Positions 34,188-62,720 are shown, counted from the stretch's first letter. The stretch: DNA of 64,000 bases from Gammaproteobacteria bacterium (GCA_963662545.2 CAXXLL010000002.1:704001-768000), one strand, 5' to 3'. Translations and numbers: made by a program. The notes: generated by a model not told the origin, from the letters alone.

Positions 34188-35552
34188 TCAACGCCCGCTT
34201 GTAAGATTCGAAACATCGAAGGTCCGGCGGACCTTCGATGCACTCATCGTCGGATGTGATGTGGGCAGCCCAATTCCCACCGACCCACGGTCGTTCTTGT
34301 GGTCGATAGAAATTGACGCGCGCCGGATCACGACGCTCTTCTCTTCCGCGGCCGACCTGCCCCGCATATCTTGTGGTGCCTTGACGACGGTATATAGCGA
34401 TTTCCACAGATTGCCGCCCTTTTCGAATATCGATGCGAACGTAGCCTCGAAGTTTTCCATATCGATGAACATGATGCGGCTAGCGTAGGGGTGGTCCTCC
34501 CACACCGGGGTCAACTCGACCACATAGCACGGCCGTACCTGCCAGCGGTCGTTCGGGATGCGGCTGCTGGGACCATAAAATCTGGCGCTTTCGTGTTTCG
34601 AATTCGCGACGAATAATATCGACTTTTGCCCGATGTAGGTCCATTTGAAATCGAACACGCGCCCTGAAAAGACGGCGAAGTCGTCGAGCGTAAAATCGGT
34701 GCCCATGAACGAATCCGCGCGTTCCTTTGCGGACAGTCGCCGCACGCGCCGCTGCGTCGGAAGATAGGAATTCACCTGGTCGTCTTCGTTAGCGAAGGCG
34801 CGCTCGACCACGAACTTAGTACCCTTGACATCGAACGGTTCGACGAACTCGAAGAAATCCTTCCATAGTAGCCGCTTAGCGTCATCCAGATTGAACCGGT
34901 ATTGTTGATCCGGAAGCATCGCAATATGGCTGAGATACGCCCGCTGGTAGGACATCATCATGAAGCGATCGACTGTGCCACCGCCTTCGAGCCCTGGGGT
35001 CAGTACGGCACTCTCGCCGCCGGCCGTCGGGCGCACCAAGTTGATCTTAATCCCAGCCGTTTTGTAACCGTAGTACTGCCAGCGCTGGATGTGATTCCAC
35101 GCAACCATCTGGCCTGCATCATCGGGTGAGGCTGCGGCAATCCGGGCGTGCGAGAATGGCAAGCCGGCAGCGTAATTTTCGAGTGCGCCGTCGACCCCTA
35201 GGCTGGCGCGATCGCCTCCGTTTACAGTCGCTTCTTGGTACGTCGCCGGTGCTCCGAAGTGGTAGGGCGCTTCGATTTCAACGGCGACTTCGGGAAACTG
35301 TAGGTCGTCGAAAAAACCAGGGACGACGAAGGGTCTTAGTAGTTCGAGATCCTCGACCCCGACGATCGTTCCCGCAATTGGGCCATCGTGTGCGTAGCGA
35401 TATTCTTCCAACCACGCGAGTACGCCATCTCGGGTTGGTGCGGCCAGGGTCGTTTGCATCATGATCATCGCGATAGCAACTATCAGCAGCCGCGACCATG
35501 AGGCTGCTGATATCAACAGATGATATCGGATGACGTCTTCTTTAAAATGCAA
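34188..35552 (-). CDS. DUF1329 family exported protein (paralog of 26466-27797)
   Basis: YAAGLPF, YLPTQRRVRRLS, WQVRPCYVVE, C-terminal FDVSNLTSGR. Confidence 0.8.
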   Translation of the reverse strand: MHFKEDVIRYHLLISAASWSRLLIVAIAMIMMQTTLAAPTRDGVLAWLEEYRYAHDGPIAGTIVGVEDLELLRPFVVPGFFDDLQFPEVAVEIEAPYHFGAPATYQEATVNGGDRASLGVDGALENYAAGLPFSHARIAAASPDDAGQMVAWNHIQRWQYYGYKTAGIKINLVRPTAGGESAVLTPGLEGGGTVDRFMMMSYQRAYLSHIAMLPDQQYRFNLDDAKRLLWKDFFEFVEPFDVKGTKFVVERAFANEDDQVNSYLPTQRRVRRLSAKERADSFMGTDFTLDDFAVFSGRVFDFKWTYIGQKSILFVANSKHESARFYGPSSRIPNDRWQVRPCYVVELTPVWEDHPYASRIMFIDMENFEATFASIFEKGGNLWKSLYTVVKAPQDMRGRSAAEEKSVVIRRASISIDHKNDRGSVGIGLPTSHPTMSASKVRRTFDVSNLTSGR

Positions 35553-37771: not shown

Positions 37772-38533
37772 GTGGCAACCAGGAAAAAGCCTACCATCAG
37801 AACGAGTGCCGACCCCAGGCAAGCCTACAGCATGCCCTACATGTCGCCCCTGTATTTCGCGCCGCCCATGGAATACCGCGGCAACTGGTCGCAACACGTG
37901 ACGTTCAGGAGCGACCCCAAGGTCATTTCCAGATGGATCCCGAAGCAGCTGGTTCCCGATCCCGACGGTTTGATGTTTATGTTGACCAGCTATTTTTTTG
38001 CCACGGGGTTCGGTCATTATCGAGAAGCGACGCTGTGTGCACACGCCAGGTTCAAAGAAAAACCCGTGAACTACACGTTGTTTCTCATACTGGACAACGA
38101 TATGGCGATTTGCGGCGGACGGGAAATCTGGGGTTGGCCCAAAAAGATGGGGACCATCGAGGTCGATGAGAACGACGCGGTGGTGCAGGCGCGGGTCGGG
38201 CGCGGCGGTGTTGAATTAGTGCGCGCAAACGTCGTCTTGAACGAACTTGTCGATGCGAGTGCGCTGGGCGGTACCACGAAGTATGTGAACTGGAAATTCA
38301 TCCCATCGGTCAAGAATGGTGCGCCGCCGGACGTCAATCAGCTGACCTTGACCGAGCTCACCAATTTTGTACCCGACAAGGTCTATCGCGGGCCGGCCAC
38401 GATCGAGTTCGGTCGCTCTCCATGCGATCATTATGCGGAGATACCCGTCGTCGAGGTGATCGAAGGGTTTTATTACAGCTCAGACTTCACCCTGGAAGAT
38501 GGTGAAGTCATCCACGACTATTTGAAGTCATGA
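37772..38533 (+). CDS. Acetoacetate decarboxylase family protein
   Basis: YSMP, GREIWGWPKK (Schiff-base Lys), VIHDYL. Confidence 0.9.
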   Translation: MATRKKPTIRTSADPRQAYSMPYMSPLYFAPPMEYRGNWSQHVTFRSDPKVISRWIPKQLVPDPDGLMFMLTSYFFATGFGHYREATLCAHARFKEKPVNYTLFLILDNDMAICGGREIWGWPKKMGTIEVDENDAVVQARVGRGGVELVRANVVLNELVDASALGGTTKYVNWKFIPSVKNGAPPDVNQLTLTELTNFVPDKVYRGPATIEFGRSPCDHYAEIPVVEVIEGFYYSSDFTLEDGEVIHDYLKS

Positions 38534-38622: not shown

Positions 38623-40007
38623 GGGTCTACGCGGAAACGTGTGGGTTGATATTGGCATTTCTGGGTAGTGGCGGAAGAAATGCCGCAATGATTTTCAGTT
38701 TGAGGAATTCCTCATCACGATAGCCATAGGCGCGTCGTTGCAGGACCCGGATTTTGTTGTTGACCCCTTCGACCAATCCAAGACTGACTTTATTCTTAGC
38801 ATCACAATAGGAAGCAATGCCATCCCAATGGGATTCAATCAGCTCAGCAAACTTGCGATACGGCGCCAATCGCTGCCATTTCAGACTGTCCTTCCAGCGC
38901 TCGAAAAAGGCACGCGCGCCGCGCTCGGTACGGTAGTCCCAGAGTTGGCCGAAGGTTTCCTTGAGGACGTAGGCGGTGTTCAGACGCCGGTTGGCCTGGA
39001 GCAGTTTTTTCAGGGCTCGTCTGCCATCCAGATTCAGGTTCTCGCGTCGCGAGAGCAAGGTATATCGCTGGCCTTTGATGTAACTCCTGTCCTTGCCGCG
39101 GAGACGTTTGTATTCACGGCGCCGGACTTCATCGAGAGCCTTTGAGAGGTGGCGCATGATATGGAACTTGTCATAGATGATCCGCGCCTGCGGTGCGTTG
39201 TTCATGACCGAGTTACGGAACGGCTTCCACATGTCCATCGCCGCCAGTTCGATGCGAGCGCTCTTGTTCTCGCCCAATGCCTGGAAAAACAGGTCGATGT
39301 CAGCCTCTTTGCGACCTTCACCACCGACCCAGATAGGACGCCCCCGATCCAGGTCACTGACGATGACCCGGTAGTTATGTCCTTTGCGGATGGAGATCTC
39401 ATCAATACCGATGGCCCGGGGTGCTGGCATGCCCGCCAGCTCAACCTGCTTTTGCATGTACAGCTTATCGAGGTCTTTCACCGTGCTGTGGTGCAGGCGT
39501 TCCCTCTCGGCGACAGCCTGGTTCGGCATGTCCCGGCACAGCTTGCCCACCTGCATGGCAAAGCGCTGCGTATAGCGAGGGTTCTTTGCCAGCCAGTCAA
39601 GATGTTCTACCTGCACGCCGCCGCACCTCCGGCAACTGACACGCCAGCGTTCGAACTCCAGGTAGATTCGCCATCCGGCAACTGACAGGTCTCGTACTCG
39701 CAGCACCTTCTTGTCGTAACGCCCGCGGCACCGGTGAGCACAGTGAGAACAGATCGCTGTTTTTTTCGCCTCTTGAGTTGGATCACACGGGCATACCGAT
39801 CACCAAACATGCCCACCAATTTCGATGCGGCGGTAAAACCAGGGAACGCAAACAGCGCTCGGATCGACTTGGGATTCTTCATGGCCTTAGCCTACCCACA
39901 AAATGAAACCACTTTCACCCCATACGAAATCTCTGAATGTCTACATGATTTCAATGGTTTACACTTGGTCTAATTCAGAATTTACCCACATGAATCCGCG
40001 TAGACCC
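38623..40007 (-). mobile_element. ISL3-family IS, copy 2 (transposase 38627-39882)
   Basis: Same IRs as copy 1; target duplication GAAAAACA. Confidence 0.95.
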
Positions 40008-42093: not shown

Positions 42094-44668
42094 GTGCCAT
42101 TGAGAGACTGTGCCCGCTACTGGTTCCTGCCTCGCATCCTCGCGCTACTTTTTGTATCGGCGGCGATCTCTGAGGCAGTGTCGGCGCAAACCGATGAATT
42201 AGATCAAGTCCGCAATCTGCTACTCGTTTCCGAAGCCACCTCGGTTGCCCGGGACCTGAGCGTTTCCGACGACATGTTCGATCAAATAGCGGCTGTCGCG
42301 GTGCTGGCCGACGTCGGTGATAAGGCGGCGATCGAGTTTCTCGCCGCTGGGCTTGAGTCTACGGATTTCCTCTACCAACGTGCTGTGGTCGACACACTAT
42401 TGAGTCTGCGCAGCGCAGACGGTGTCGAAGTCTTACGTCGCTATATGGAGGCCGCTGAGGACCTGGGCTTTTTGCGCTATCTGATGGAATCGCTTGCCTC
42501 CCATCCGCTCCCGGTAATGATAAGTTTTCTGGGTCTACGCGGAAACGTGTGGGTTGATATTGGCATTTCTGGGTAGTGGCGGAAGAAATGCCGCAATGAT
42601 TTTCAGTTTGAGGAATTCCTCATCACGATAGCCATAGGCGCGTCGTTGCAGGACCCGGATTTTGTTGTTGACCCCTTCGACCAATCCAAGACTGACTTTA
42701 TTCTTAGCATCACAATAGGAAGCAATGCCATCCCAATGGGATTCAATCAGCTCAGCAAACTTGCGATACGGCGCCAATCGCTGCCATTTCAGACTGTCCT
42801 TCCAGCGCTCGAAAAAGGCACGCGCGCCGCGCTCGGTACGGTAGTCCCAGAGTTGGCCGAAGGTTTCCTTGAGGACGTAGGCGGTGTTCAGACGCCGGTT
42901 GGCCTGGAGCAGTTTTTTCAGGGCTCGTCTGCCATCCAGATTCAGGTTCTCGCGTCGCGAGAGCAAGGTATATCGCTGGCCTTTGATGTAACTCCTGTCC
43001 TTGCCGCGGAGACGTTTGTATTCACGGCGCCGGACTTCATCGAGAGCCTTTGAGAGGTGGCGCATGATATGGAACTTGTCATAGATGATCCGCGCCTGCG
43101 GTGCGTTGTTCATGACCGAGTTACGGAACGGCTTCCACATGTCCATCGCCGCCAGTTCGATGCGAGCGCTCTTGTTCTCGCCCAATGCCTGGAAAAACAG
43201 GTCGATGTCAGCCTCTTTGCGACCTTCACCACCGACCCAGATAGGACGCCCCCGATCCAGGTCACTGACGATGACCCGGTAGTTATGTCCTTTGCGGATG
43301 GAGATCTCATCAATACCGATGGCCCGGGGTGCTGGCATGCCCGCCAGCTCAACCTGCTTTTGCATGTACAGCTTATCGAGGTCTTTCACCGTGCTGTGGT
43401 GCAGGCGTTCCCTCTCGGCGACAGCCTGGTTCGGCATGTCCCGGCACAGCTTGCCCACCTGCATGGCAAAGCGCTGCGTATAGCGAGGGTTCTTTGCCAG
43501 CCAGTCAAGATGTTCTACCTGCACGCCGCCGCACCTCCGGCAACTGACACGCCAGCGTTCGAACTCCAGGTAGATTCGCCATCCGGCAACTGACAGGTCT
43601 CGTACTCGCAGCACCTTCTTGTCGTAACGCCCGCGGCACCGGTGAGCACAGTGAGAACAGATCGCTGTTTTTTTCGCCTCTTGAGTTGGATCACACGGGC
43701 ATACCGATCACCAAACATGCCCACCAATTTCGATGCGGCGGTAAAACCAGGGAACGCAAACAGCGCTCGGATCGACTTGGGATTCTTCATGGCCTTAGCC
43801 TACCCACAAAATGAAACCACTTTCACCCCATACGAAATCTCTGAATGTCTACATGATTTCAATGGTTTACACTTGGTCTAATTCAGAATTTACCCACATG
43901 AATCCGCGTAGACCCAGTTTTCTTATAGAGGCGCTCGACCATTATGACCCAGTGGTTAAAAAGTTCGCCCTGCAATCGCTCTCTCAGTTACATTTTGAGA
44001 ACCACGACTCACGAATTCACCTACTGGCGAGCGATGCCGGAGAAATCGTGCAGGTGCGGGCATACGCCTGGAATGTATTACTGGATTCGCCACATCGGCG
44101 AGAGTCGATCGAACGCCTGCTGGAAATGTCTCGGCTTGGAAGTCCCGAAGCAAAGGAAGTCGTGGCAGTGGCGCTCGGCCGTGTTGACACACCACGAACT
44201 CGCGAAGCATTGGTTGAGTTGATGTCGAGTAACGACAACCGCGTAGCGCTTGCTGCGCTTACAAGTTCTGCCGGGTTGCGGGATGAGGCAGCAGCGCGTG
44301 AGCTCGAATGGACCATCGTTTACGGTGATGGACTTCATCGTGCTGCCGCGGCTGGCGGACTAAAGCGTATCGACCCGGCGGTCGCCTCGCGTGTTACCGA
44401 GAACCTAATGTCCTGTTACCTGCTTGGTCCGTTCACGGGGATGCGCCTTGTCGAAGCGTGGGCCATGATCGATGCCGACCCAAGCACCGTATATGGTTGG
44501 GGTTTGTCCCACGAAGACGAAGGAGTTCGCATGCAGAGCATTTGGTTAATAGGTCAACGTCGCGATGTAGAATACTTAGAACGAGTTGCTGCCTTCCTCC
44601 GCGATCCGAGTCCTGCCATCCGAGGCCTCGCGGCGTGGGCGGTGTTGCGCCTGGCTAGAGGGCCATAG
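42094..44668 (+). pseudogene. HEAT-repeat exported protein interrupted by ISL3 copy 3
   Basis: HEAT-like repeats on both sides; frame restored across the AGTTTTCT duplication (VMISFLIEALD). Confidence 0.8.
42531..43915 (-). mobile_element. ISL3-family IS, copy 3 (transposase 42535-43790)
   Basis: Same IRs; target duplication AGTTTTCT. Confidence 0.95.
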
Positions 44669-44863
44669 CTTATCTAGCCTGTTACCAAAACCCCTGTGAC
44701 GCTCCCGAATGGACCGATTGCTGGCGCTGGCGGCCTAACGCCCACACAAACCGCCATTGGCGTAAAAAGGGGCAAGCACTTATTTTTGTCCGTTCCTATA
44801 TCTTCAAAAGGCAAAGAGGAAATAAGTGCGTCGCCTTTTGGGTGCTGCCGCGAATACGTAAAG

Positions 44864-45010
44864 GGCCGCTATATTGGGTCCATAGCCGCCTCATCGCTAC
44901 AGTGCAGCACCGTTCCAAATCACGTCTGCAATGCGCTCGTAAGCGGTTGTCGAATTGCTTCAAGCGTTAAGTCGAGAGGGTATGACGGTTTTCGGCCACA
45001 AGCAGTCCTT
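44864..45010 (+). repeat. Multi-hairpin repeat copy R15
   Basis: gggtccatagccgcctcatcgctacagtgcagcaccgttccaaatcacgtctgcaatgcgctcgtaagcggttgtc..ggccacaagcagtc. Confidence 0.88.
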
Positions 45011-45137
45011 CGAAAATCGCCTGCCCAGCATCGGTACACGGTGAGAAAAAGGGAAAGGTGCCAGGTTTATTTAGAGCGGTTCGCTAACTACCAAAAATAA
45101 ACCTGATGCCCTTTTCTCAAAACGAGGAAGTCATAAA

Positions 45138-46313: not shown

Positions 46314-46628
46314 GATTGAGCTCTCCTGGATCGGTGTGGTGGCCGGTTCGCGCCACGGGTATCTATCTGCAATGCTAATTCGCGCGCGCTCGCTGATCTA
46401 CTACTAGTGAGCCTGCCCGTGGCCGCCGCGCGGCAATCGGGACGGCAGCCCGCAACGAGGCCCGGTTCAGACGCATGGCGCTGGTCGCGCCCGCCGGTAT
46501 CCCCCCGCCGGAGGGCGACATCCTGGATATGTACGTGGGCCCTTCCGAGCGCTACCACAGGTGCGCAACCAGCACGGGGAACTCGTGATGGTGTTTACAC
46601 CCTTGCGTATGATCAAAGCCAGCGCTTA

Positions 46629-46792
46629 AGGGACCTCTGAATAAGTCATGGTGCGTCTGAATGGTTCATGCGATGGTCCAGATCAAGACACGAGTCGCCG
46701 GCCATAGTGGGGACTATGGGTAAGGTTCGTAACGTAAGGCTCCGCGATTTCATGGGCAAGGCAGATGGGCCATGACTTTTTCAGAGGTTCTT
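46629..46792. mobile_element. MITE with ~23-bp terminal inverted repeats
   Basis: agggacctctgaataagtcatgg / ccatgactttttcagaggttctt. Confidence 0.7.
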
Positions 46793-46938
46793 TAAAGCAT
46801 CACCTGCTTGAGCGAGACTGGTCGTTGAATTTGCATCGGCGCCACCAAATCCCATTGGATAAATTCGCCAACGCCGTGCGCATCGCCCAGATGATCGGGA
46901 ATTTCCGTTTCTACGTTATTTCCCCCAATTTCGTCTGA

Positions 46939-47640
46939 TTACGCGCTCCGAGTGGTCTTCGGCGAGAAAAAGTAGGCGCCTGCGCCTAGCACGACCACCG
47001 CCAACACCCACTTCAGGGGTCCCCACCAGTTCACCACGCCCACCGAAAACGGAAATACCGAGACATATTCGCGGCCGGTACCGGGATCAACGGCACTCAA
47101 TACACCGATGAACGAACCGGCGGTGTCGAATTTCAAGCTCACGTCGAAATTCCCATTGGGGTAGCGCTGAGACGGGCGGTAAGCGACGGTAGCCGATTCG
47201 ATATCTTCGATCGAACCGAGATCGGTATAAGTGGCGGTAACCCCAATGTTGTTTACGTCACGTAGGATGCGAAAATCAACCGGCATGTCGCGCAATGCCT
47301 GGCTGACGAAATCGAGGACGATAATGGCATCGGCGACGACCGGAATATCTTCGCAAAATTCTTTTGCGCCCCTGACTTTCGGTTGATACCCAGTGAAATG
47401 GGCACGGTAGGGACCGATGCTCATAATGCACCGATCGTCCTCGATCGACACACCGCCGTGCGCATCACCGCGTGTCGGTGCGATCGCGAGTAAAACGAGG
47501 CAACCCAGCATCAAGCGCGAGATGAGTTTATGCGGGTTAGCCTCTAGGTTGGAATCATGCGGCATATTGCTGGTCGGCGTTTGCACGATGAGCCGGGGGG
47601 GCGCAGGAAAGCGCATGCCATAGCGATCTTTTGACAGCAA
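46939..47640 (-). CDS. pmoD: PmoD/AmoD-like periplasmic copper-binding protein (start may be 47565)
   Basis: Signal peptide, HGGVSIEDDRC..HFTGYQP..EFCEDIP, C-terminal TM; directly after the B subunit. Confidence 0.8.
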   Translation of the reverse strand: MLSKDRYGMRFPAPPRLIVQTPTSNMPHDSNLEANPHKLISRLMLGCLVLLAIAPTRGDAHGGVSIEDDRCIMSIGPYRAHFTGYQPKVRGAKEFCEDIPVVADAIIVLDFVSQALRDMPVDFRILRDVNNIGVTATYTDLGSIEDIESATVAYRPSQRYPNGNFDVSLKFDTAGSFIGVLSAVDPGTGREYVSVFPFSVGVVNWWGPLKWVLAVVVLGAGAYFFSPKTTRSA

Positions 47641-47693
47641 CCGTAAAGCATTCCGAAGTCAGGCGCGCCAGCCCGATAATACCGAGGCACCGA

Positions 47694-48923
47694 TTACTCG
47701 AATACCGGAATCAGCGATCCAGCGACTTCGACAATTTCGCGACTGCCGTCGTCACCGTAGAAGAACAGCAACCCGGCGATGACGCTATCGGGATCGTTAA
47801 TCATGCGGGTCAGACGCTGGGTCTCCCATAAAGCATCTTCGGCAAACACCTCGACGCTTTTTGTTTCGCCGGGCGCAATGCCATCATTCACCACCCGCAG
47901 TCCCGCACTCGCGATCAAGTCATGTTCGTCTAACGGTGTGACCGTTCGCACAGCCGGATTGATAAATCGAATGTTTGCCGTCATGAACTCGCCGACGTAA
48001 AGGGTCGCCGGCCCGTTATTCATCACTAAAAGCTCCATTCTGAAGCTGCGGCCGGGAATACGGTAAGTGGCTTTCTCGACCTGCACGTTGACCTTAGATA
48101 CGGGATAAGGTTTGTCGGCCGGTATACTGATCTTAGACGTTCGCAGAGGAATGGTGACGGGAGCCGCGCGCTCGCCCCACATAAAACCCGCGACGATAAT
48201 CAACAACGTGACGGTAATAAACCCGACGGCAACCTTTACATCCCCGTCGGTAATCAGGTCGTCCCCGTCTCCGCCTTTATTCTCGGCTTCCGTTACCGCG
48301 CGAAGACGCGGAACGAGCAACGGACGCTGTCGCAGCCAATAAAAAAGCCACGCCCCGCCGATGACTATCCAAATCAAATGCCAAGCAGCAATCGTGCCCA
48401 GATTGAATCTTTCCAAATCGACTTCGCGCCCGAACATCGTCTCCACCTTGTTCTCGAAATCGTCAAACGAACCGCTTACCTCGACCCAGCGTCCAGGTCC
48501 GGCCAGGGTACCGGCATCCTTGACATTGAGCACCGGATGTACGTGGAAACGTCCCGGCTTGCGGGCCTTTAGTTCGATTGCGAAGCTATAATCCTTGCCC
48601 TGTTCGAGCGAGGTGGACTGCACGGCGCTGATGCCGTCGATATTGGACGATACCCGTACGAAATTCGGTCCCCCGGTCGACACGTTCAAGAATACCCGGT
48701 CCTCAACCGACGGGATCTGCTCCGGCCAATAGCTCGATACGCGTAGGCGTCCCTTAATCTTTACGACTTCTCCAATCGCAACCGTGGGCGGCCCAATTTT
48801 AACGTCATACCAGTTGATGGTGCGCATGCGGGTGGTGGCCTGCATCGCGCGCTCACCGTGCGCGAGCCCCTCCAGCGGCACAAAAACCAGCAAGAACAAC
48901 AGTGCTGCTGCTCGGATCAACAT
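47694..48923 (-). CDS. pmoB: Copper membrane monooxygenase subunit B (PmoB/AmoB family)
   Basis: AHGER..RMRTINWYD, PGRFHVHP, ATYRIPGRS, GEFMTANIRF, DPDSVIAGLLFF. Confidence 0.95.
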   Translation of the reverse strand: MLIRAAALLFLLVFVPLEGLAHGERAMQATTRMRTINWYDVKIGPPTVAIGEVVKIKGRLRVSSYWPEQIPSVEDRVFLNVSTGGPNFVRVSSNIDGISAVQSTSLEQGKDYSFAIELKARKPGRFHVHPVLNVKDAGTLAGPGRWVEVSGSFDDFENKVETMFGREVDLERFNLGTIAAWHLIWIVIGGAWLFYWLRQRPLLVPRLRAVTEAENKGGDGDDLITDGDVKVAVGFITVTLLIIVAGFMWGERAAPVTIPLRTSKISIPADKPYPVSKVNVQVEKATYRIPGRSFRMELLVMNNGPATLYVGEFMTANIRFINPAVRTVTPLDEHDLIASAGLRVVNDGIAPGETKSVEVFAEDALWETQRLTRMINDPDSVIAGLLFFYGDDGSREIVEVAGSLIPVFE

Positions 48924-48955
48924 ATGCCAACCAAGTTAAGACAGTTATTACGGAT

Positions 48956-49690
48956 TCAGGCTTTCGTTATCCAGGTCTGCCTGTTAAGGATCGATCCGAA
49001 CGCCCACGACACATAAAAGACCAAGGTGCAGACGAAACCCGCGAAGACGGCCGTGAGCGGCGTGACCGCATCACCGAAAGTCCGCAATACTGATCGCTCC
49101 ACCAGGCGAATATATTCCGGTAAGCCGGTACGAATATATTCGTAACCGAGAAGGTCTGCCGTCGTCAGCATTTCCCCGTTGTAGTTGATGGGTTCATGGA
49201 AGGCGGCCAGCAACGGCCAGTTAACCGGGTAGACCAACAGCCCCCACAGAAACGCACCCGAGAGGCCGGTCAGGAAGACACTGCGCGTAATAAGCAGCGA
49301 GCAATCGATGAGGATGGCGAGCGGAATGAAGATTGACGGCCAGACAAAGCTCATCGGGTAGCCGGCGAACAGGTGGAAATTCAGGTAGACGCTGAACCAA
49401 CGCATGATCGTGTAGAGCAGCACAACGCCCGTGCAGCCGATGGGCAGCCTGAATCGGGACCAAAATGCAGCGGCGAGCCCGGCGGGAAAGACGAGCAGGG
49501 CCGCTACCGGTAACAGGGGCCAGAAGCGCCGGTCTTTCCAGTCGACCCAGAACTCCCAATCGCCGATCGTCACCGACATGACGAAAACCGTCGCACCCGC
49601 GACGGCAAACAGAATCACGGCGAACAACGCCAGATCGACGTTGCTCTCGAGGTATTCGGTGATTCTGGAACGCTCAGCTACCGTAGCCAC
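48956..49690 (-). CDS. pmoA: Copper membrane monooxygenase subunit A (PmoA/AmoA family)
   Basis: GDWEFWVDWKDRRFWP, YPVNWP, GYEYIRTGLPEYIR..LRTFG. Confidence 0.95.
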   Translation of the reverse strand: MATVAERSRITEYLESNVDLALFAVILFAVAGATVFVMSVTIGDWEFWVDWKDRRFWPLLPVAALLVFPAGLAAAFWSRFRLPIGCTGVVLLYTIMRWFSVYLNFHLFAGYPMSFVWPSIFIPLAILIDCSLLITRSVFLTGLSGAFLWGLLVYPVNWPLLAAFHEPINYNGEMLTTADLLGYEYIRTGLPEYIRLVERSVLRTFGDAVTPLTAVFAGFVCTLVFYVSWAFGSILNRQTWITKA

Positions 49691-49751
49691 AAAAGCCTTT
49701 TACCTCTCGATTCGCGCGTCTGGCGCCGGTCCCGGATACGGCCGACAGAAA

Positions 49752-50534
49752 TCAGGTCTTCGCAACGACCTCGTCGATCAATTCAGTCATGCGCGAGACG
49801 ACGTGTATCACCACGCCACCGAGACCCAGTAATGCGAGCCCCAAGATGGAAAAGCCCCAGTGAATCGACGCATTGAACGTTTCTTCGGCATAGAAGAAAG
49901 TATGGCCCCACTCGTTGTATCCGACGGTCGGCATGATCAGGATCGGGCCGCCGATAGCTATGACCAGCGCGAGCAAGTGCTTTTTATTGTGCATTGGCAG
50001 GCGTGTCTTCGCATACACAAACGACCCGACGCCCGTGATGATCAATGCCGGGATGAGAAGGTAGAAAAGTTCAATATGCGTCGGCGTGAAATCCGTGTCG
50101 CGAATCACCACCTGGTGCCACGCGGCGTCGCTCTCGGCGCCCATCACGCCCGTGATGAACACCACCAGGGTGTATGACGCGAGCCAGGTTATCCACTTGA
50201 AGTATCGGGACAGCTCGATTTCGGGTGTGACCGTATCCCAAGCCCGTTCTCGCGTTTGCCACAAATAGAGCACCACGCCGATCAAAACCACCACGGCGAT
50301 GCCGATCTGGGCGTATAACAACCGCATCCAGTAGACGGCGAATTCGGGTTCGAAATAATCGAGCCCGACCGAGAACGCGTAATTGTGCAGGTAGACGCGG
50401 TAGGCGAAATAGCCCAAGGCGATGCCTGCAATCACCTTGATATATGCGCCCCAGCGAATGACCACAGGGGCGGTCGCGTGCTCGCGGGTCACCGCGTGTT
50501 GATCAGAATCGATGGCGCCGGCAGTTACACTCAT
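49752..50534 (-). CDS. pmoC: Copper membrane monooxygenase subunit C (PmoC/AmoC family)
   Basis: GLDYFEPEF..YWM, DAAWHQVVIRDTDFTPTH, NEWGHTFF..EE.F..IHWGF. Confidence 0.95.
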   Translation of the reverse strand: MSVTAGAIDSDQHAVTREHATAPVVIRWGAYIKVIAGIALGYFAYRVYLHNYAFSVGLDYFEPEFAVYWMRLLYAQIGIAVVVLIGVVLYLWQTRERAWDTVTPEIELSRYFKWITWLASYTLVVFITGVMGAESDAAWHQVVIRDTDFTPTHIELFYLLIPALIITGVGSFVYAKTRLPMHNKKHLLALVIAIGGPILIMPTVGYNEWGHTFFYAEETFNASIHWGFSILGLALLGLGGVVIHVVSRMTELIDEVVAKT

Positions 50535-50569
50535 GATACTGGCTCCTGGTGCGGCATTGGCGGGGGCAA

Positions 50570-50606
50570 TTTAATGATAATCTACTCAATATAATTGTGT
50601 GACAAG
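50570..50606 (-). promoter_or_regulatory. Possible sigma70-type promoter of the CuMMO operon
   Basis: AT-rich patch with TTGTCA followed by TAGATT/GATTAT just upstream of the C subunit; spacing imperfect. Confidence 0.3.
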
Positions 50607-50849
50607 TATACGCACCAAACGGGCCGCAGAGCCAGATACTCAGGAGCGAAGGCTTGTTAATGTCATTGAGATACTAAACCGGACCGAACGCGCCGATTGC
50701 GGATAGCTCCGGCGCTGGTGATGCCTTTGGGTTCGATATGTTCTCGAGTGGGCGGGCGCGATCCCGCGCTCTGGGAATGGCGGGGTCCGCGTTTCGGCGC
50801 GCACACGAAATTCCTCACCGCCGGACGCTTTCCGACCGAGGCCTTGCTC

Positions 50850-51065
50850 AGGGTCGAGCGTGAAAATGCGATGCTGAGCCTGGAAGATGCTCATTGGCGT
50901 TTAGCCGCGCTGCCCGCGCAACTTGCCGGCGTGGCCGAGCGGGGCGTGCTGAACACCGGCGCGCCGGCCGACATCATCGTCTACGACTTGGAAAACCCGG
51001 CGATACTTCCCGCTGAAGTGGTGCACGATTTGTCCGGCGGGGAGTGGCGCCGGATCGCCGCGTAA
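50850..51065 (+). pseudogene. N-acyl-D-amino-acid deacylase C-terminal fragment
   Basis: LSLEDAHWRL..PA..G..ERGVL..GAPADIIVYD. Confidence 0.7.
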
Positions 51066-51122
51066 GATCTCCGGGGCGGTCTCACTCGGGTGCTGATTTT
51101 CTGGTGAAACGGACAACGCATT

Positions 51123-51923
51123 ATGGACTTGGAACTCAATGATAAATCGGTGATCGTTACCGGTGGCGCGTCCAATATCGGGCGGGCGATCGTGCTGGCG
51201 TTTGCTCGTGAAGGCGCGCGGATCACGGTGGGCGACATCGACGTCGAGCAGGCGGAACGGGTCGCGGAAGTCGCGCGGCGGCAAGGCGCCGCAGAGATAA
51301 TAGTGCTTGAGACCGACATCACTGATCTGCAGCAGGTGAAGTCGATGACCAAGGCAGCGGAAGATCGCTACGGTTGTATCGATATTTTGGTCAACAATGT
51401 CGGCTGGGATCAGCTCATGTTTTTTTCGCAGACAACACCGGAGTTCTGGGAAAAGGTGATCCGCATCAACTACGTCGGCAACCTGAACTGCACCCACACC
51501 GTGCTCGGTATCATGCTCGAGAATAAAACGCCGGGCGCTATCGTCTCTCTGAGCTCGGACGCCGGTCGGCAGGGAGAGCCGCGCGAAGCGGTGTACGGCG
51601 GTATCAAGGCCGGAATTAACGCCTTTATGAAAACCCTCGCTAAAGAAAATGGCCGCTATGGGATCCGCTGCAATACGGTTTGTCCCGGTGTGACGGTTCC
51701 GGAGGACGACGAGGAGGTCGGCGCGACCAGCATGTGGACCGACAAGACGTCATTATTTACCCCAGACCAACTCGAGGCCGTTGCCCGGGCAATGCCGCTG
51801 AAAAAACTGGGGCGGGCGCGAGACGTGGCCAACGCAGTGCTTTTTCTTGCCTCTAACTCAGCCGCGGGTCATATAACGGGCCAGGTGCTGAGCGTCAGTG
51901 GCGGCTATAGTATGGTGGGTTAG
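51123..51923 (+). CDS. SDR oxidoreductase (BadH-like acyl-CoA dehydrogenase)
   Basis: TGGASNIG, NNVGWD, SSDAGR, YGGIK. Confidence 0.9.
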   Translation: MDLELNDKSVIVTGGASNIGRAIVLAFAREGARITVGDIDVEQAERVAEVARRQGAAEIIVLETDITDLQQVKSMTKAAEDRYGCIDILVNNVGWDQLMFFSQTTPEFWEKVIRINYVGNLNCTHTVLGIMLENKTPGAIVSLSSDAGRQGEPREAVYGGIKAGINAFMKTLAKENGRYGIRCNTVCPGVTVPEDDEEVGATSMWTDKTSLFTPDQLEAVARAMPLKKLGRARDVANAVLFLASNSAAGHITGQVLSVSGGYSMVG

Positions 51924-51946: not shown

Positions 51947-53653
51947 ATGATGAATAATCACTATGACCTGAAGATCGTCAATGCGCAGATCGCCGATGGC
52001 TCGGGCGGGCCGCTGTTCGGCGGCGACATTGGTATTCGCGACGGTCTGCTGACTGACGTTGGTGCGGCGCCGGGTGACGCATCTGAAACGATCGATGCCG
52101 CAGGCCACGTCGTTGCACCGGGTTTCGTCGATATTCATACGCACTACGATGCCCAGATCCTATGGGATCGAATGTTGACGATCTCCCCGTGGCATGGCGT
52201 CACTACGGTGGTGATGGGCAATTGCGGTTTCAGCGTTGCCCCGACGCGTCCAGCGCATCGCGACATGATGATCCGTACCCTGGAAAACGTTGAGGGCATG
52301 ACCGCCAGTGCGCTGCAAGCGGGACTCGGCGAAGACTGGCCGTTCGAGACTTTCCCCGAGTATCTCGACGTGATCGAATCACGCGGCATCGCGATCAACG
52401 TGGGCGCGATGATCGGACATACCGCATTGCGTACCTATGTCATGGGCGAGGAAGCGACAGAGCGCGAAGCGACGACCGCTGAGATCGACCATATGCGCGC
52501 GCTGGTCGACGAGGCGATGACAGCCGGTGCGCTCGGTTTCGCCACGTCGAAGGCCATTACCCATGTCGGCTACCAGGGTAAGCCGGTACCCAGCCGGGCG
52601 GCTTCGTTCGATGAGATCCGAAGCCTCGCGGCTGTCCTGCGCGACACCGGCCGCAGTGGCGTGATTCAGGCGACCGTTGGACCGACTCTTTCCTATGACG
52701 AATTCTCGGAACTCAATGAAGTTTCGGGATGCACGGTCACTTGGACCGCGCTGCTCGCCGGCGCCGCGATCCATGAAGGCACCGCCAGCGAACAGTTACG
52801 TCATTCCGAGGCCTTGATCGCGCGGGGCTATGACGTCGTTCCCCAGGTGACGCCGCGGCCGTTGAATTTCGAGTTTCAGCTCAAGGCGCCTTTTGTGCTC
52901 GAGGCGATGCGATTGTTCCGTCCGGTATCCGAAGCGGACCATGAGGGTAAGAAGCGACTCTACGCCGACCCCGCGTTCCGCGCCAAGGTGTGGGAGAAGC
53001 TCGACGGGCGCATACCCTGGACGTTCAAAAACGGCTTCCGGGGAACGGTCATATCGGAGGTGCCGGGAAAACCGGAGCTCGGTGAACGCGGCCTGTTTGA
53101 ATTGGCGCAAGAGCGCGGCGTGACGCCGGTCGAATTGTTGTTCGATCTCGGTCTTGAATCCGATCTGGAAGCGCGCTTCCGCATGCCGGTAGCCAATCAC
53201 GACGAGGACGAGGTCGAAGAGCTGTTGCTGAGCACCGATACCGTGATCGGTCTTTCCGATGCCGGCGCCCACGCCAGCCAACTCTGCGACGCGTGTCTGA
53301 CGACTTATCTTTTCCGCCGCTGGGTGCGCGAGAAACAGGTGATCAAACTGGAAGAGGCGGTGCGGATGGTAACCTCAAGGCCGGCCGAGGTGTTCGGCAT
53401 TCACGATCGCGGGCGATTGCTGGCCGGCTTCGCGGGCGATGTCGTGATCTTTGATCCCGATACCATCGGCGATGAGCCGCTACGGCGCGTTTGGGATTTT
53501 CCCGGCGGCGCCGATCGCCTGGTATCCAGCGCCCTCGGCATCGATGCCGTCATCGTCAACGGCAAGGTCCTGCGGCGGCATAACCAGGATTGCGTTGATG
53601 TCGATGGCCCGCTGCCGGGACGCCTGCTGAGAAATGGCCGGGCAAGGTCATGA
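51947..53653 (+). CDS. N-acyl-D-amino-acid deacylase family amidohydrolase
   Basis: APGFVDIHTHYDAQ, GVTTVVMGNCG, SDAGAH. Confidence 0.92.
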   Translation: MMNNHYDLKIVNAQIADGSGGPLFGGDIGIRDGLLTDVGAAPGDASETIDAAGHVVAPGFVDIHTHYDAQILWDRMLTISPWHGVTTVVMGNCGFSVAPTRPAHRDMMIRTLENVEGMTASALQAGLGEDWPFETFPEYLDVIESRGIAINVGAMIGHTALRTYVMGEEATEREATTAEIDHMRALVDEAMTAGALGFATSKAITHVGYQGKPVPSRAASFDEIRSLAAVLRDTGRSGVIQATVGPTLSYDEFSELNEVSGCTVTWTALLAGAAIHEGTASEQLRHSEALIARGYDVVPQVTPRPLNFEFQLKAPFVLEAMRLFRPVSEADHEGKKRLYADPAFRAKVWEKLDGRIPWTFKNGFRGTVISEVPGKPELGERGLFELAQERGVTPVELLFDLGLESDLEARFRMPVANHDEDEVEELLLSTDTVIGLSDAGAHASQLCDACLTTYLFRRWVREKQVIKLEEAVRMVTSRPAEVFGIHDRGRLLAGFAGDVVIFDPDTIGDEPLRRVWDFPGGADRLVSSALGIDAVIVNGKVLRRHNQDCVDVDGPLPGRLLRNGRARS

Positions 53654-57562: not shown

Positions 57563-58425
57563 ATGGCTGCCCGCAACGATTGTCAGCGCCCTTGGTTGCT
57601 CCTTGTGTTGGGGCTTTTCGTAATTTCGCCTGTTCATGCAATCGTCGTTGACTTTGAGACCCTCCCCATAGGGTCGTTTAGCGGCGAAACGTCTGAATCG
57701 GGCTACACTATTTCGCACGAGGGGGTAAGCCCCGCGAGCGCACTAGCTGCCATTGTAGGAGGAGGGCCTACCAATTGTGGCCCGCCATGCGCGTCCAACA
57801 CGACGAATAGTCTTGGTGGGTTTAACGCTAGTGCATTTGTAGTTACGAGCGATGCAGGTACGCCTTTTTCGCTATTTGCCTTTGACGCGGCGGAGACGTT
57901 CTCAGGTGAGCCGACTACTTGGGCAGATACTGTTGTGGTGGTCGGTGAACTTTTTGGCGGCGGCCAAATCATGCTCGGGTTCGCCCTGGATGGAATAAAT
58001 GACGCCTTCGGCGGGCAGGATGATTTCCAGCCTTTTCTCTTACCTAGCACATTCGCCGATTTGACAAGCGTCCGATTTGTAGGCGACGGAGGTTTTTCGC
58101 CGCTTAACAACGGGTTCATGTTGGACAACCTCGGGTTATCGGTGAACTTTTTGGCGGCGGCCAAATCATGCTCGGGTTCGCCCTGGATGGAATAAATGAC
58201 GCCTTCGGCGGGCAGGATGATTTCCAGCCTTTTCTCTTACCTAGCACATTCGCCGATTTGACAAGCGTCCGATTTGTAGGCGACGGAGGTTTTTCGCCGC
58301 TTAACAACGGGTTCATGTTGGACAATATCGTTTTATCACCATTATTAGTTCCTGCACCTCCAGGCTTGCCCGTTTTCGCCATATGTGCAGGTGGCGTGGC
58401 GTGGGTACGCCGCCGCTGTACGTAA
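57563..58425 (+). pseudogene. PEP-CTERM-like surface protein broken by a 187-bp duplication
   Basis: Signal peptide, VDFE start, DNI..VPAP + hydrophobic helix + RRR tail. Confidence 0.75.
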
Positions 58426-59212: not shown

Positions 59213-60148
59213 GTGAAAAAGGTACTTTCATTAGATGGCGGCGGGATACGCGGGCTGATTCCCGCATTGGTTCTCGCAGCAATAGAAAACGCAACCGGAA
59301 AATCAATATCAGAGTCGTTTGATTTAATCGCTGGCACGTCGACAGGGGGAATACTCGCTCTGGGGCTTGTCAAGGACGAAGGAAATGGCGAGCCGCAATA
59401 CAGCGCAACGGCGCTAGCGAAGCTATACGAACAGAGGGGGAAGGATATATTTTCCCGTTCCCTGTGGAAAGGTGCTTCATCCGCAGGAGGGCTGCTCGAT
59501 GAGAAATACTCTGAAGATGGCTTGGAGGAAGTTCTCGACGAGTATTTCGATAACGAGCCTTTGGGGGCTGCTCTAACGAACGTGCTTGTCACGAGCTACG
59601 ACATTCAGAATCGAGCGCCGCATTTCTTCAAGAGCTGGCATCCGGATATGAGGGCGGTCGAAATGAAGTTCGTTGGGCGAGCCACTTCTGCTGCGCCCAC
59701 GTATTTCGAACCCGCTCTCGTCCCAGTGCAGGGTACGATGCGGGCGTTAATTGACGGCGGCGTTTTCGTAAACAACCCGGTTGTTTCCGCATATGCAGAG
59801 GCCAAACGAATTTTTCCTGGAGAAGAAGAAATGCTCGTTGTGTCTATCGGAACCGGGGAGCTGACTCGCCCAATCGCCTACAGCGATGCTAAAGACTGGG
59901 GCAAAGCGGGATGGATGTTGCCTGTTCTTAGTTGCGTATTTGACGGTGTTTCGGATGCGGCCAACTATCAGATGCAGCAGATACTTAATGATGGTTTTGT
60001 CAGATTCCAGACAAGCTTAACAATCGCTTCTGACGATATGGACAATGTTACAAATGGCAATATTCAAAACCTAAAGGCGGAGGCGAAAAAACTGATTAGA
60101 ACACACAAGCAAGAGTTAGAGCGGCTTGTCGAGGCGCTAAAAACGTAA
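59213..60148 (+). CDS. Patatin-like phospholipase
   Basis: LSLDGGGIRG, GTSTG, SAAPTYF, DGG. Confidence 0.93.
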   Translation: MKKVLSLDGGGIRGLIPALVLAAIENATGKSISESFDLIAGTSTGGILALGLVKDEGNGEPQYSATALAKLYEQRGKDIFSRSLWKGASSAGGLLDEKYSEDGLEEVLDEYFDNEPLGAALTNVLVTSYDIQNRAPHFFKSWHPDMRAVEMKFVGRATSAAPTYFEPALVPVQGTMRALIDGGVFVNNPVVSAYAEAKRIFPGEEEMLVVSIGTGELTRPIAYSDAKDWGKAGWMLPVLSCVFDGVSDAANYQMQQILNDGFVRFQTSLTIASDDMDNVTNGNIQNLKAEAKKLIRTHKQELERLVEALKT

Positions 60149-60328
60149 GGCTCCATAGCAGGATATTGTCATCGCGCTAGCAGACAATAATTACGCCGCG
60201 CGATGCAGTTGTCACGCGCTACAATAATGGAGAGCGGATAATTCTACGGACGGACGAAGATAGACAATACGACAACGACCACTTGATGTGCTTTGAGCAA
60301 GGCGGTGAATTGGACTGCAACAGAGTAG

Positions 60329-60613
60329 ATGTTATCGAGGAACAATAAAGTGCGACGGCTAAGTTTGTTATTAGTTTGCGTGAGCGTTGTTGCGCAAACG
60401 CAGATAGTGAAGGCCGAATTGTTCGGACCAGCTACCTTTGAGGATTGCATACTCGAAAATATGAAAGGTGTTACAAGTGATTTCGCGGCTCGCGCCATTC
60501 AAAGCGCATGCCGAGAAAAATTCCCTGCGAAACTACCAAAATGCACATCCATAAAGGATTCGGCAGAGCGATTCAAAGCAGAAAGGCGCCGCGAATGTAT
60601 AAAACCCGAGTAA
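60329..60613 (+). CDS. Small exported Cys-containing protein
   Basis: Signal peptide; FEDCILENMKG..ACREKF. Confidence 0.6.
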   Translation: MLSRNNKVRRLSLLLVCVSVVAQTQIVKAELFGPATFEDCILENMKGVTSDFAARAIQSACREKFPAKLPKCTSIKDSAERFKAERRRECIKPE

Positions 60614-60675
60614 CCGTTGAATCAGAAGAAGCCCAGCAAGCCATACGATAGACAATTAGCAACGTTCAATCTGTC

Positions 60676-60815
60676 TTCGCAATCACTTTAGATTATCAAT
60701 TCTCGGGCATCCTCCTGCGCCCTAGACGGTCTTCCGTCCCGGAGAGCATCTTCAATGCTGCGAGCGTCGAAAACCGCCTACAAGCGGTATCGGGGTGTCC
60801 TGCGGCGAATCTTAG
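60676..60815 (+). repeat. Second repeat family, copy B
   Basis: Matches 58740-58915 in ordered blocks. Confidence 0.75.
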
Positions 60816-61423
60816 GCTGCCTTCGCTCTGCGCAGTGCTTGCGATTTCGCAATCTGCGCTCGCGGCTAACGTCTAAATTCTATTCCTCGCGCATCCTCCT
60901 ACTTCCTAAGCGGTCTTCGACGCCCGTGAGTATATTGGCTCGCTCTGCTGCAGAAAATCGTCTTAGGGATGAAATGGCAACGTTCCATGTACCGAATGTG
61001 CGCCAGAGGCGAGCCAGGTGTTTTTCAAGTGAAACAGAATGAAGCGCTTAGTCTTGACTTGATGGGCGTGGATAGTCCTCGGGCTGGGGGCTTTACATTT
61101 CCGTGCAATCAATCATTGTTCGAATAGCTTCATAAATTGGCGCCCGCGTTTCGGTGGTTGCCGTGAATCGAGAAACCCACCTTCAACGTTCGACTTTGCC
61201 TACTGTCTGACGGTATGGGAGCAATCTTTATTAGCTGAGGAAATGGGACTAAGCTTCTGAGAAGGCGCAATCATTCTCAAATATATTAATTGACGAAACG
61301 TTCGCGCTTAATGCTTATGCAGGCCGTGAATTCAATGCGCTGTAGATACGAAATTTACCACAAACGGATTTTCTGCGAGCGCAAGCCTCCACGTAAATTT
61401 CTACTATTAAATTCGGGGTAGGT

Positions 61424-61696
61424 ATGGCCGAGTTATTGCTCTGGGCTGCTCGAATCGTTGTGGTAGCGATATTTGTACTCTTGCTTGCGGTCGTTTTCCG
61501 ATTCTTTCAACTCGAAGACGAGAGCGAGCGGCAAGAATATGGCGACGCTGGTAAGCCGTTCTTTAAACAAAATGTGGAAGTCGGAAGCCATTTCGGCCCG
61601 AAATCCAAAGTGCCTCGTTGGCAAGCGTGGCTAGGAGCGCTAGCTATTCCCATCGGCATACTGGTAGTGCTTATCGTGAGTTCATTTAACGATTGA
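61424..61696 (+). CDS. Small two-TM membrane protein
   Basis: Two hydrophobic helices; purine-rich RBS. Confidence 0.5.
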   Translation: MAELLLWAARIVVVAIFVLLLAVVFRFFQLEDESERQEYGDAGKPFFKQNVEVGSHFGPKSKVPRWQAWLGALAIPIGILVVLIVSSFND

Positions 61697-61799
61697 GCCG
61701 AAAGATGCTAGTGAAATCCACGACAAAACGTCATAGCGCGGCGCGCATACAGCGCCCGGGAGCGCGTCTTTATTCGCGATGAAGGGAGCAAGGGGGAAA

Positions 61800-62027
61800 A
61801 TGGCCTTCTATATATATGAAAACTGGCAGGCAGGGCCGCGCAAAGCCGTAATACATCATGGCTCCTGCGGATATTGTAAAGATGGCCGAGGGCAGGCCGG
61901 AGGCTATGACCCTGCCCACGCAGAATGGCACGGGCCATTTGGCAGCCTGCCGCAGGCTCGGGAAACACAAAACTCGATGAAGGTAATTGTACGAAAGAAA
62001 TGTCGTTGCGTCAGTGCGTTTGGATGA
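61800..62027 (+). CDS. Small Cys/His-rich hypothetical protein
   Basis: FYIYENW, IHHGSCGYC, WHGPF, CRC. Confidence 0.6.
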   Translation: MAFYIYENWQAGPRKAVIHHGSCGYCKDGRGQAGGYDPAHAEWHGPFGSLPQARETQNSMKVIVRKKCRCVSAFG

Positions 62028-62146
62028 AACTGGGAATCTTGTTCGACGATAGGATGGAGCGCTTAGCTTTCTTCGGCTCCGGACTTTTTCTACAGACTAG
62101 TTAGATGAAATAGACCGAAAGCCAATGTTCTGGGGGGAGTACTCAA

Positions 62147-62668: not shown

Positions 62669-62720
62669 CATTACGCTGCCCTCCGGCGGCGGCTGAGCGC
62701 GAGCGCTATTTACTCGGAAA

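Follow-up and report, generated by a model that had tools for sequence, protein, structure and literature searches.

The oxidation of methane, ammonia and short alkanes begins with a step that copper membrane monooxygenases (CuMMOs) control, and to our knowledge a substrate has been measured for only a handful of CuMMO clades. The locus described here, at positions 46,939 to 50,534 of a 64,000-nucleotide stretch of DNA from a gammaproteobacterium (GCA_963662545.2, CAXXLL010000002.1:704001-768000; the whole stretch is called the window), raises the question of whether its CuMMO stands outside the characterized clades and, if so, what it oxidizes. Analysis of open reading frames (ORFs) revealed four consecutive genes on the minus strand, every frame intact, in the order C-A-B-D (Table 1), which bears out the canonical arrangement reported by a first-pass annotation of this DNA. 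Judged from its sequence, the locus is the xmoCAB-pmoD operon of a CuMMO from an uncultured gammaproteobacterial lineage, and it belongs to a populous clade that is known only from uncultured bacteria and has no assayed member.

Subunits and copper sites

All three monooxygenase subunits score above the curated cut-off of their Pfam family: XmoC as AmoC (PF04896, 2.7e-71, 240.2 bits versus a cut-off of 26.7), XmoA as AMO (PF02461, 6e-71, 239.6 bits versus 27.5) and XmoB as Monooxygenase_B (PF04744, 1.1e-126, 423.6 bits versus 22.7). Among the NCBIfam models, XmoB alone passes an equivalog cut-off (AmoB_BACT, 482.8 versus 336); XmoA and XmoC fall below every cut-off, with AmoA_BACT at 251.9 versus 290 and AmoC_BACT at 264.1 versus 319, and the three subunits together do not qualify as a bacterial ammonia monooxygenase (AMO). 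The TIGR equivalog cut-offs for subunits of particulate methane monooxygenase (pMMO) are likewise missed by A, B and C. Scores of this kind for XmoA and XmoC typically mark a CuMMO that lies beyond the curated pMMO and AMO sets. A search against PDB sequences gave no near-identical match for XmoB (pMMO at ~345 bits, 7.1e-102; AMO at 308 bits) or for XmoA (pMMO at 204 bits, 3.1e-59; AMO at 163 bits), and the best match of XmoC was AMO subunit C (190 bits, 5.5e-55), next to a pMMO C chain at 189 bits.

Individual residues were read from alignments to the pMMO and AMO chains in the PDB and from an alignment of 18 related operons and two named references. XmoC keeps the ligands of CuC (D136, H140 and H153) and CuD (N207, H211 and H225), and XmoB keeps those of CuB (H22, which is the first residue past the predicted signal peptide, H127 and H129); all of them recur in each aligned sequence of the clade, the window included. 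Given the family folds and this full set of ligands, the usual membrane trimer is expected, and family membership together with the intact ligands implies, as far as sequence can tell, a membrane monooxygenase that depends on copper. The departures from pMMO that had been noticed earlier are also real. The two bis-His positions of XmoB, which are histidines in the 'RTIHWYD' and 'KFHV' motifs of Methylococcus capsulatus, are N37 and R61, and in XmoA, which has the motif DWEFW, 'TVFV' lies opposite the M. capsulatus 'YHIH', with V35 and V37 at the histidine positions. PmoCAB of M. capsulatus and Methylotuvimicrobium (3RGB, 7S4H, 6CXH, 7S4L) therefore shares with the window the three subunits, the order C-A-B and the CuB, CuC and CuD ligands, whereas the window enzyme scores only 345, 204 and 189 bits against it (B, A and C), lacks the bis-His residues and two PmoA histidines, has no methanol dehydrogenase nearby and falls into a separate starred clade in the XmoA and XmoB trees.

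A further residue bears on substrate size. XmoC carries the motif 'RDTD', which is invariant in the window clade and in its sister clade (see below), and the aspartate after 'RDT' is shared with the Methylotuvimicrobium PmoC chain; the corresponding motif is 'RDTA' in HmoC of Mycolicibacterium chubuense NBB4 and 'RDTP' in Methylomagnum PxmC. A review gives D139, H143 and D149 as HmoC ligands and states that the exchange A151D cut butane oxidation more than ethane oxidation (PMC13058606). The spacing of D136, H140, D146 and D148 in XmoC equals that of D139, H143, D149 and A151 in HmoC, and the first-pass alignment of this position, with its pMMO-like aspartate, is therefore right.

Table 1. Features of the operon, of its immediate surroundings and of the oxidase module found in related loci; positions refer to the window unless a related locus is named.
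Feature	Position	Strand	Remarks
xmoC	49752-50534	minus	260 aa; CuMMO subunit C
xmoA	48956-49690	minus	244 aa; CuMMO subunit A
xmoB	47694-48923	minus	409 aa; CuMMO subunit B, predicted signal peptide
pmoD-like fourth ORF	46939-47640	minus	233 aa counted from first TTG
Promoter-like hexamers TTGTCA-17-GATTAT and an overlapping alternative	50574-50605	minus	~40 nt 5' of the xmoC ATG
Amidohydrolase C-terminal remnant (Amidohydro_3-type)	50697-51065	plus	adjoins xmoC
Short-chain dehydrogenase/reductase (SDR)-family dehydrogenase	51123-51923	plus	divergent from xmoC; Pfam adh_short_C2, 6.2e-55
Imperfect palindrome resembling a miniature inverted-repeat transposable element (MITE)	46618-46800		~180 nt, terminal inverted repeats of ~38 nt; 140 bp downstream of the pmoD-like stop
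Multicopper-oxidase module	L001 11989-14249		also in L003-L011, L015 and L017

The promoter-like hexamers upstream of xmoC are a weak match, since the consensus scan found 4 sites versus 2.5 expected. A terminator-like hairpin at 46973-46988 was set aside; it lies inside the pmoD-like coding region.

Position among known monooxygenases

Clusters 97-100% identical to XmoA, XmoB and the PmoD-like protein exist on other public contigs (97% for XmoA; 100% for XmoB, cluster P0121). The named matches are records of metagenome-assembled genomes (MAGs) from Gammaproteobacteria, Proteobacteria or Pseudomonadota, several of them labelled as methane or ammonia monooxygenase subunits, and the next tier of XmoB matches, at 44-49% identity, includes Sinimarinibacterium, Panacagrimonas and Nevskia. 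When 185,579 species genomes were scanned, 18 related loci (given L numbers below) emerged, all from MAGs and with XmoB identities of 37-73%. Among 1.84 billion cluster representatives, 282 proteins reached E 1e-3 or better, 80 of them 1e-30, and the best full-length match was 43% identical. Highly divergent, as the operon was described earlier, is not to be read as rare: 75 of the 120 XmoB matches listed are at least 53% identical.

In a FastTree phylogeny of XmoB (76 rows; L015 was left out for a run of X), the window falls into a clade of 12 rows with 99% support, which together with its sister clade makes 22 rows at 100%. IQ-TREE in quick mode under LG+C20 (43 rows) recovered the same size of window clade at 100% and, with the sister, 25 rows including a long-branched trio at 98%. 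For XmoA, FastTree (134 rows; L015 and L017 were left out for over-long ORF calls) put 54 rows into the window clade (99% support) and 70 into the larger group that takes in the sister (99%). FastTree and IQ-TREE quick supports are less reliable on long branches, and the anchors are few named rows, with no verified M. capsulatus, Methylosinus, Nitrosomonas or Nitrosococcus row among them. Four representatives of 50% clusters (P0362, P0363, P0365 and P0366) were rejected as anchors of the XmoB tree, none being identical to a solved enzyme; P0363 is nearest to gammaproteobacterial pMMO (445 bits in the PDB search).

The window and sister clades together are separate from the Pxm of Methylomagnum, from a Nitrospiraceae MAG and from NBB4 HMO, and in the XmoA tree also from the Methylocystis SC2, Methylomirabilota (NC10), Stellaceae and Cycloclasticus rows. 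They do not branch within the pMMO clade of proven methanotrophs, for which the verified rows are the XmoA of Methylocystis SC2 and Methylomirabilota, nor with HMO/BMO of the NBB4 or Nocardioides type, which occupies the opposite half of the XmoB tree. No nesting inside a characterized clade was thus found among the rows anchored, and the modest PDB scores and separate starred clade uphold the proposal of a CuMMO of unknown substrate outside the anchored pMMO, AMO and HMO groups. Literature searches returned no description of the window clade or of an xmoCAB-pmoD-oxidase operon; the name UBA981 was met with once, in the legend to a tree of soluble monooxygenases.

The sister clade comprises three Nevskiales proteins (Sinimarinibacterium, Panacagrimonas and Nevskia) and CuMMOs of Pseudomonadales-labelled, UBA5335-type MAGs, and is joined to the window clade with 98-100% support. 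Its enzymes, which have been proposed to be particulate hydrocarbon monooxygenases, share the xmoCAB-pmoD order, a C-x9-H PmoD with an HGGVS N-terminus and the 'RDTD' motif; they differ in that XmoB is 44-49% identical, in that their XmoA keeps one of the two histidines, and in the genes that follow pmoD at four of their loci. More distant systems resemble the window in other respects. HmoCAB of NBB4, which acts on C2-C4 alkanes, is the alkane CuMMO of a heterotroph, the role considered here for the window enzyme, and has the same ligand spacing in subunit C, but its HmoB is 25% identical to XmoB (tblastn) and hmoB has no pmoD homologue annotated after it. PxmABC, represented by the plasmid copy of Methylomagnum ishizawai, is likewise a divergent paralogue among the CuMMOs, with its copper ligands kept and its substrate unsettled; in contrast to the window, its gene order is A-B-C, its PxmB is 37% identical to XmoB (tblastn) and it forms a separate starred pair in the trees.

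The fourth gene

The ORF that follows xmoB has no match in Pfam or NCBIfam, but a PDB sequence search matched it to PmoD of Methylocystis sp. Rockwell (6CPD; E 4e-13 over 132 residues). An AlphaFold (AF2) model built with 53 homologues (mean pLDDT 87.6, pTM 0.75) superposes on 6CPD in Foldseek with E 1.4e-12, a target-normalized TM score of 0.86 and a root-mean-square deviation of 2.4 A, and contains a signal-type helix at residues 11-28 and a C-terminal membrane helix at 181-200. The start is uncertain between TTG 47640, ATG 47616 and ATG 47565, and either ATG is likelier than the TTG. The PmoD/AmoD family has been defined by a signal peptide, a periplasmic domain in which two cysteines are strictly conserved, and a C-terminal membrane helix (PMC6189053). 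Sequence match, fold, the two cysteines and both helices place the window protein in this family, and the fourth gene is accordingly modelled as encoding a membrane-anchored periplasmic protein of the PmoD type. With Methylocystis PmoD and with AmoD and AmoE of nitrifiers it shares the signal peptide, the cupredoxin-like periplasmic domain, the two conserved cysteines, the C-terminal helix and the place right after xmoB.

It differs from Methylocystis PmoD, to which it is 27% identical, at the copper site. H36, G37, G38, V39, C46, H56 and C71 are invariant in the 53-sequence alignment, and the motif reads C46-x7-R54-A-H56...C71 (C-x9-H-xn-C), with arginine at the position of Met49 of Methylocystis PmoD; arginine or lysine fills this column in all 17 homologues from the related loci. 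The protein thus falls outside the CuA-forming subclass, which has Met at C+8 and His at C+10. As reported in the same source, the CuA center is confined to PmoD with C-x7-M-x-H-xn-C, and C-x9-H members bind copper without it (PMC6189053); the residue at the Met49 column therefore assigns the window protein to the latter class. Given this family and motif class, it most likely handles copper for the monooxygenase. The predicted mature N-terminus is HGGVS, and its invariant His-Gly-Gly, which sets it apart from Methylocystis PmoD, suggests an additional copper ligand. 

The gene directly follows xmoB in 17 of the 18 related loci, the exception being a Nitrospiraceae contig, and the protein family is large (2004 proteins at E 1e-3 or better), with 'hypothetical' given as the name throughout. 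PmoD has been called specific to methane and ammonia oxidizers (PMC6189053). The window lineage, unlike the described PmoD/AmoD family, is not a known oxidizer of either, and the range of PmoD is extended to another lineage and to a motif class without the CuA center.

Gene neighborhoods and the substrate

Neighborhoods were counted over the 17 loci that carry pmoD, 11 of which belong to the window's own clade. A gene for a 564-aa multicopper oxidase directly follows pmoD in 10 of these 11 (10/10 of the informative ones; L002 ends at the pmoD stop, and in L008 the first 140 residues of the oxidase run to the contig end), and the gene next to it, in 9 of the 11, encodes a protein of ~200 aa with a weak Cu-oxidase_2 match. 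Sister-clade loci L015 and L017 carry both oxidase genes, so that the oxidase follows pmoD in 12 related loci. The module may serve in handling copper or in oxidizing the product. At four sister-clade loci the pair is replaced by copC and a copD-cytochrome c fusion, after which come an acyl-CoA synthetase, a Baeyer-Villiger monooxygenase (BVMO)-type gene (3/4), an alpha/beta hydrolase, a metal-dependent hydrolase (3/4) and an SDR (3/4).

Over all 17 loci, a BVMO or flavin-containing monooxygenase-type gene occurs in five (L007, L010, L012, L014 and L016); the L007 copy (7468-9114) sits between xmoC and xmoA, and the L010 copy lies 2.3 kb downstream. An AMP-binding acyl-CoA synthetase is found in seven, with L006, L009 and L011 having one after the oxidase pair, an alpha/beta hydrolase in four, and an SDR of the window type in five as well as in the window itself. 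A divergent TetR gene is present in L001, L002 and L009. The flanks further hold an AlkB-type desaturase-family gene, Rieske oxygenases, HpaB- and HsaA-like flavin monooxygenases, SCO1/SenC, epoxide hydrolase, P450 and luciferase-like monooxygenases. In L007, a phosphoribulokinase-family gene (5450-6403) lies just upstream of xmoC and may hint at CO2 fixation there.

We favor, with slightly better than even confidence, a hydrocarbon (an alkane, cycloalkane or alkene) as the physiological substrate. This reading rests by analogy on four observations: the window clade has as its sister groups that are found in hydrocarbon degraders; one operon of the window clade (L007) has a BVMO gene within it; BVMO, esterase, acyl-CoA synthetase and SDR genes recur beside the operons; and C1 and nitrification genes were seen neither in the window nor in the flanks of the relatives. 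A mechanism is proposed in which the XmoCAB trimer, with copper handled by the PmoD-type protein, would use the copper site of subunit C to transfer one oxygen atom of O2 to a small substrate of low reactivity. The hydroxylation of a short or medium alkane, a cycloalkane or an alkene would give an alcohol, which SDR-type dehydrogenases would oxidize, and in the relatives BVMO, esterase and acyl-CoA synthetase would carry the product into central metabolism. The SDR of the window is a candidate alcohol dehydrogenase for the monooxygenase product; its best NCBIfam model is 2-hydroxycyclohexanecarboxyl-CoA dehydrogenase, at 219 versus a cut-off of 431 and thus below it.

The heterotroph-like context described earlier is borne out, and the host itself has the look of a heterotroph. 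The catabolic character of the region is strengthened by a pair of luciferase-like monooxygenase genes and a pair of DUF1329/LolA-like genes (10952-13854, 26406-27797 and 34188-35552); a DUF1329 gene is also found near the L010 operon.

Two preprints describe comparable enzymes. In one, a pmoCAB clade in Porticoccaceae is proposed, as a hypothesis, to carry out the first step of methylcyclohexane use (10.1101/2022.11.07.515388); the other treats phmCAB of UBA5335 MAGs as putative short-chain alkane monooxygenases that differ from the methanotroph enzymes (10.1101/2023.07.16.546273). Both sets of enzymes appear to belong to the sister clade.

Several points weigh against a hydrocarbon substrate. 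The window itself has no BVMO, acyl-CoA synthetase, CopC/CopD, epoxide hydrolase or multicopper oxidase gene (tblastn, E 1e-3), so that the pathway argument rests on relatives 44-74% identical. The 'RDTD' aspartate at the position of HmoC Ala151 argues for a small pocket and not one of cycloalkane size. We know of no member of the window clade or the sister clade whose substrate has been measured, and both preprints offer hypotheses only. Separation from classical pMMO and AMO, in turn, rests on bit scores and a few named rows because verified reference rows are absent, and the view of the genome is limited to 64 kb.

Could the enzyme instead be a methane monooxygenase, its host being an unrecognized and possibly facultative methanotroph? 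XmoB and XmoA find their best PDB matches in the pMMO chains from M. capsulatus and Methylotuvimicrobium, the 'RDTD' aspartate is common to the Methylotuvimicrobium PmoC chain and all copper ligands are kept. However, the pMMO scores (345 and 204 bits) are so near the AMO scores (308 and 163) that the proteins are roughly equidistant from both, and the neighborhoods hold ketone, ester and fatty-acid genes instead of C1 genes. As the first-pass annotation had stated for methanol dehydrogenase and hao, no pyrroloquinoline quinone (PQQ) dehydrogenase or hydroxylamine oxidoreductase domain was detected in the window (Pfam, 64 further ORFs of at least 90 aa), and the same holds for the flanks of the related loci (14 scanned). 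Sister-clade sequences have, moreover, been judged very unlike those of methane oxidizers (10.1101/2023.07.16.546273). Methane is on this balance an improbable substrate.

Ammonia is less probable still. In this case the multicopper-oxidase pair of the relatives would process hydroxylamine, and the clade would carry a copper-only nitrification module in heterotrophs. XmoB does exceed the AmoB_BACT cut-off, yet that model is generic and XmoA and XmoC remain under theirs; the best PDB match of XmoC is an AMO subunit. The position of the oxidase directly after pmoD in 12 related loci would suit such a module, and among its weak NCBIfam matches is copper nitrite reductase (43.7 bits, far below cut-off), but the same protein matches the copper-resistance CopA and CueO models, which makes copper handling the simpler reading. 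The hydroxylamine oxidoreductase missing from the window and from the loci scanned, and the absence of the oxidase pair from the window, also speak against ammonia.

The ketone genes raise an alternative of a different kind, namely that the substrate is an oxygenated volatile, such as acetone or another ketone, and not a hydrocarbon. Acetone oxidation has been reported for a pMMO homologue of verrucomicrobial methanotrophs (PMC8630023), BVMO genes lie beside or within the operon in relatives, and an acetoacetate decarboxylase gene is present in the window (37772-38533). That gene is 9 kb off, past two insertion sequence (IS) copies; a BVMO already handles ketones, which would make a second ketone oxygenase redundant; and the parallel with the verrucomicrobial enzyme is drawn from its description. 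We regard this alternative as unlikely and retain a hydrocarbon as the favored substrate.

Rearrangement of the window copy

The closest relatives allow the state of the window copy to be judged. The first-pass annotation had called the operon complete, which is correct for C-A-B-D; compared with its kin, the window lacks the multicopper-oxidase genes, present in 10/10 informative closest relatives, and the TetR gene of three relatives (tblastn, E 1e-3). A search for remnants of the oxidase, TetR, BVMO, CopC/D and epoxide hydrolase genes in the window and its two intergenic stretches flanking the operon turned up nothing at E 1e-3 and no more than noise at E 10. The place of the oxidase pair is occupied by the MITE-like palindrome, which corresponds to the MITE noted earlier; it occurs once in the window and has a DNA fold of -43.4 kcal/mol (z -4.36, with 0/200 shuffles as good). 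On the other side, xmoC is followed outward by the amidohydrolase remnant, the SDR and two amidohydrolases. The remnant has no Pfam match of its own, but window positions 50796-51062 correspond to residues 440-528 of the amidohydrolase at 51947-53653 (tblastn, 29% identity, E 1e-8), so that the truncated amidohydrolase of the earlier annotation is genuine, and it is a marker of a rearrangement boundary. DNA similarity to the 18 related loci stops at both operon borders, and 50535-51122 is unmatched. The locus has clearly been rearranged within an IS-rich region, and the operon is no longer accompanied by the multicopper-oxidase pair and the TetR regulator, which the closest relatives have retained next to theirs.

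The suggestion that the operon was laterally acquired finds no support as a recent event. Its GC content (0.56-0.58) is like that of the surrounding 20 kb (0.52-0.61), and in L001, the nearest genomic relative, an SDR and an Amidohydro_2 protein 82% and 85% identical to those of the window are encoded ~6 kb upstream of xmoC, their orientation relative to it being reversed. These identities are similar to those of XmoCAB in the two loci (73-80%). GC like the flanks and neighbors common to L001 therefore speak for descent within the lineage followed by local rearrangement, and not recent import.

The rearrangement could also mean that the window copy is a crippled remnant, severed from the oxidase pair and TetR and no longer expressed or assembled. 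Loss of a pair that all 10 informative close relatives possess, the end of homology at both borders of the four genes, the flanking amidohydrolase fragment and palindrome, and three identical ISL3 copies together with IS91, IS5-like and DDE_3 transposases in the window are consistent with such decay. Set against this are four intact frames with every ligand kept, and the 97-100% identical XmoA, XmoB and PmoD clusters on other public contigs, which indicate that this form is not a one-off. The missing genes could sit elsewhere in the genome, and in the sister clade CopC and CopD stand in for that pair, which suggests that the module is replaceable. A defunct copy is on balance unlikely.

Other features of the window

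The three ISL3 transposase copies (100% identical) lie at 2251-3330, 38627-39706 and 42535-43614; the third stands between HEAT-repeat ORFs at 42094-42576 and 43811-44668, which have the appearance of a single gene interrupted by the element. A REP/MITE-like family of 13-16 copies (~45-140 nt, 60-88% identical, mostly intergenic) is spread over 1846-45007, for example at 21917-22061, 28972-29076 and 44863-45007, with one copy inside a spurious ORF at 44696-45100. Near-perfect duplications occur in tandem at 57937-58330 (2 x 197 nt) and at 18664-18899 (2 x 118 nt, in a PD40 beta-propeller ORF at 17259-19097), and with a spacing of 187 nt at 29288-29576 (2 x 102 nt). A nitronate monooxygenase ORF of 221 aa at 54838-55503 matches two stretches of the 331-position Pfam profile and may be truncated. 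The last part of the window, 60001-64000, has a GC content of 0.475-0.49 versus a window mean of ~0.55 and ORFs without Pfam matches, and may differ in origin. An Rfam scan of the window gave no match, and hence no rRNA or tRNA by which the host could be placed.

Detection and significance

Three common pmoA/amoA primers were compared with xmoA, as the first-pass annotation had advised. The forward primer fits at 49547-49564 with 2 mismatches, and neither of the two reverse primers has a site in xmoA at 3 or fewer mismatches. Amplicon surveys would therefore probably miss the clade.

A broader and rather unlikely interpretation is that the clade represents a copper-only system, made up of XmoCAB, a non-CuA PmoD with an N-terminal His and in most cases the oxidase pair, with which widespread, uncultured and heterotrophic Gammaproteobacteria would draw on a trace gas or volatile that they are not at present credited with using. 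Candidates would be ambient methane, ethane or ethylene, or else ammonia, in which case hydroxylamine would fall to the oxidase pair; if this were true, the window copy would demonstrate that the core enzyme can do without that pair.

The link to the oxidase pair, conserved in the relatives and lost in the window, offers a natural comparison for the role of the pair. Knowledge of the substrate would show whether a widespread group of heterotrophs clears water and soil of hydrocarbons or, with lower probability, of methane or ammonia.

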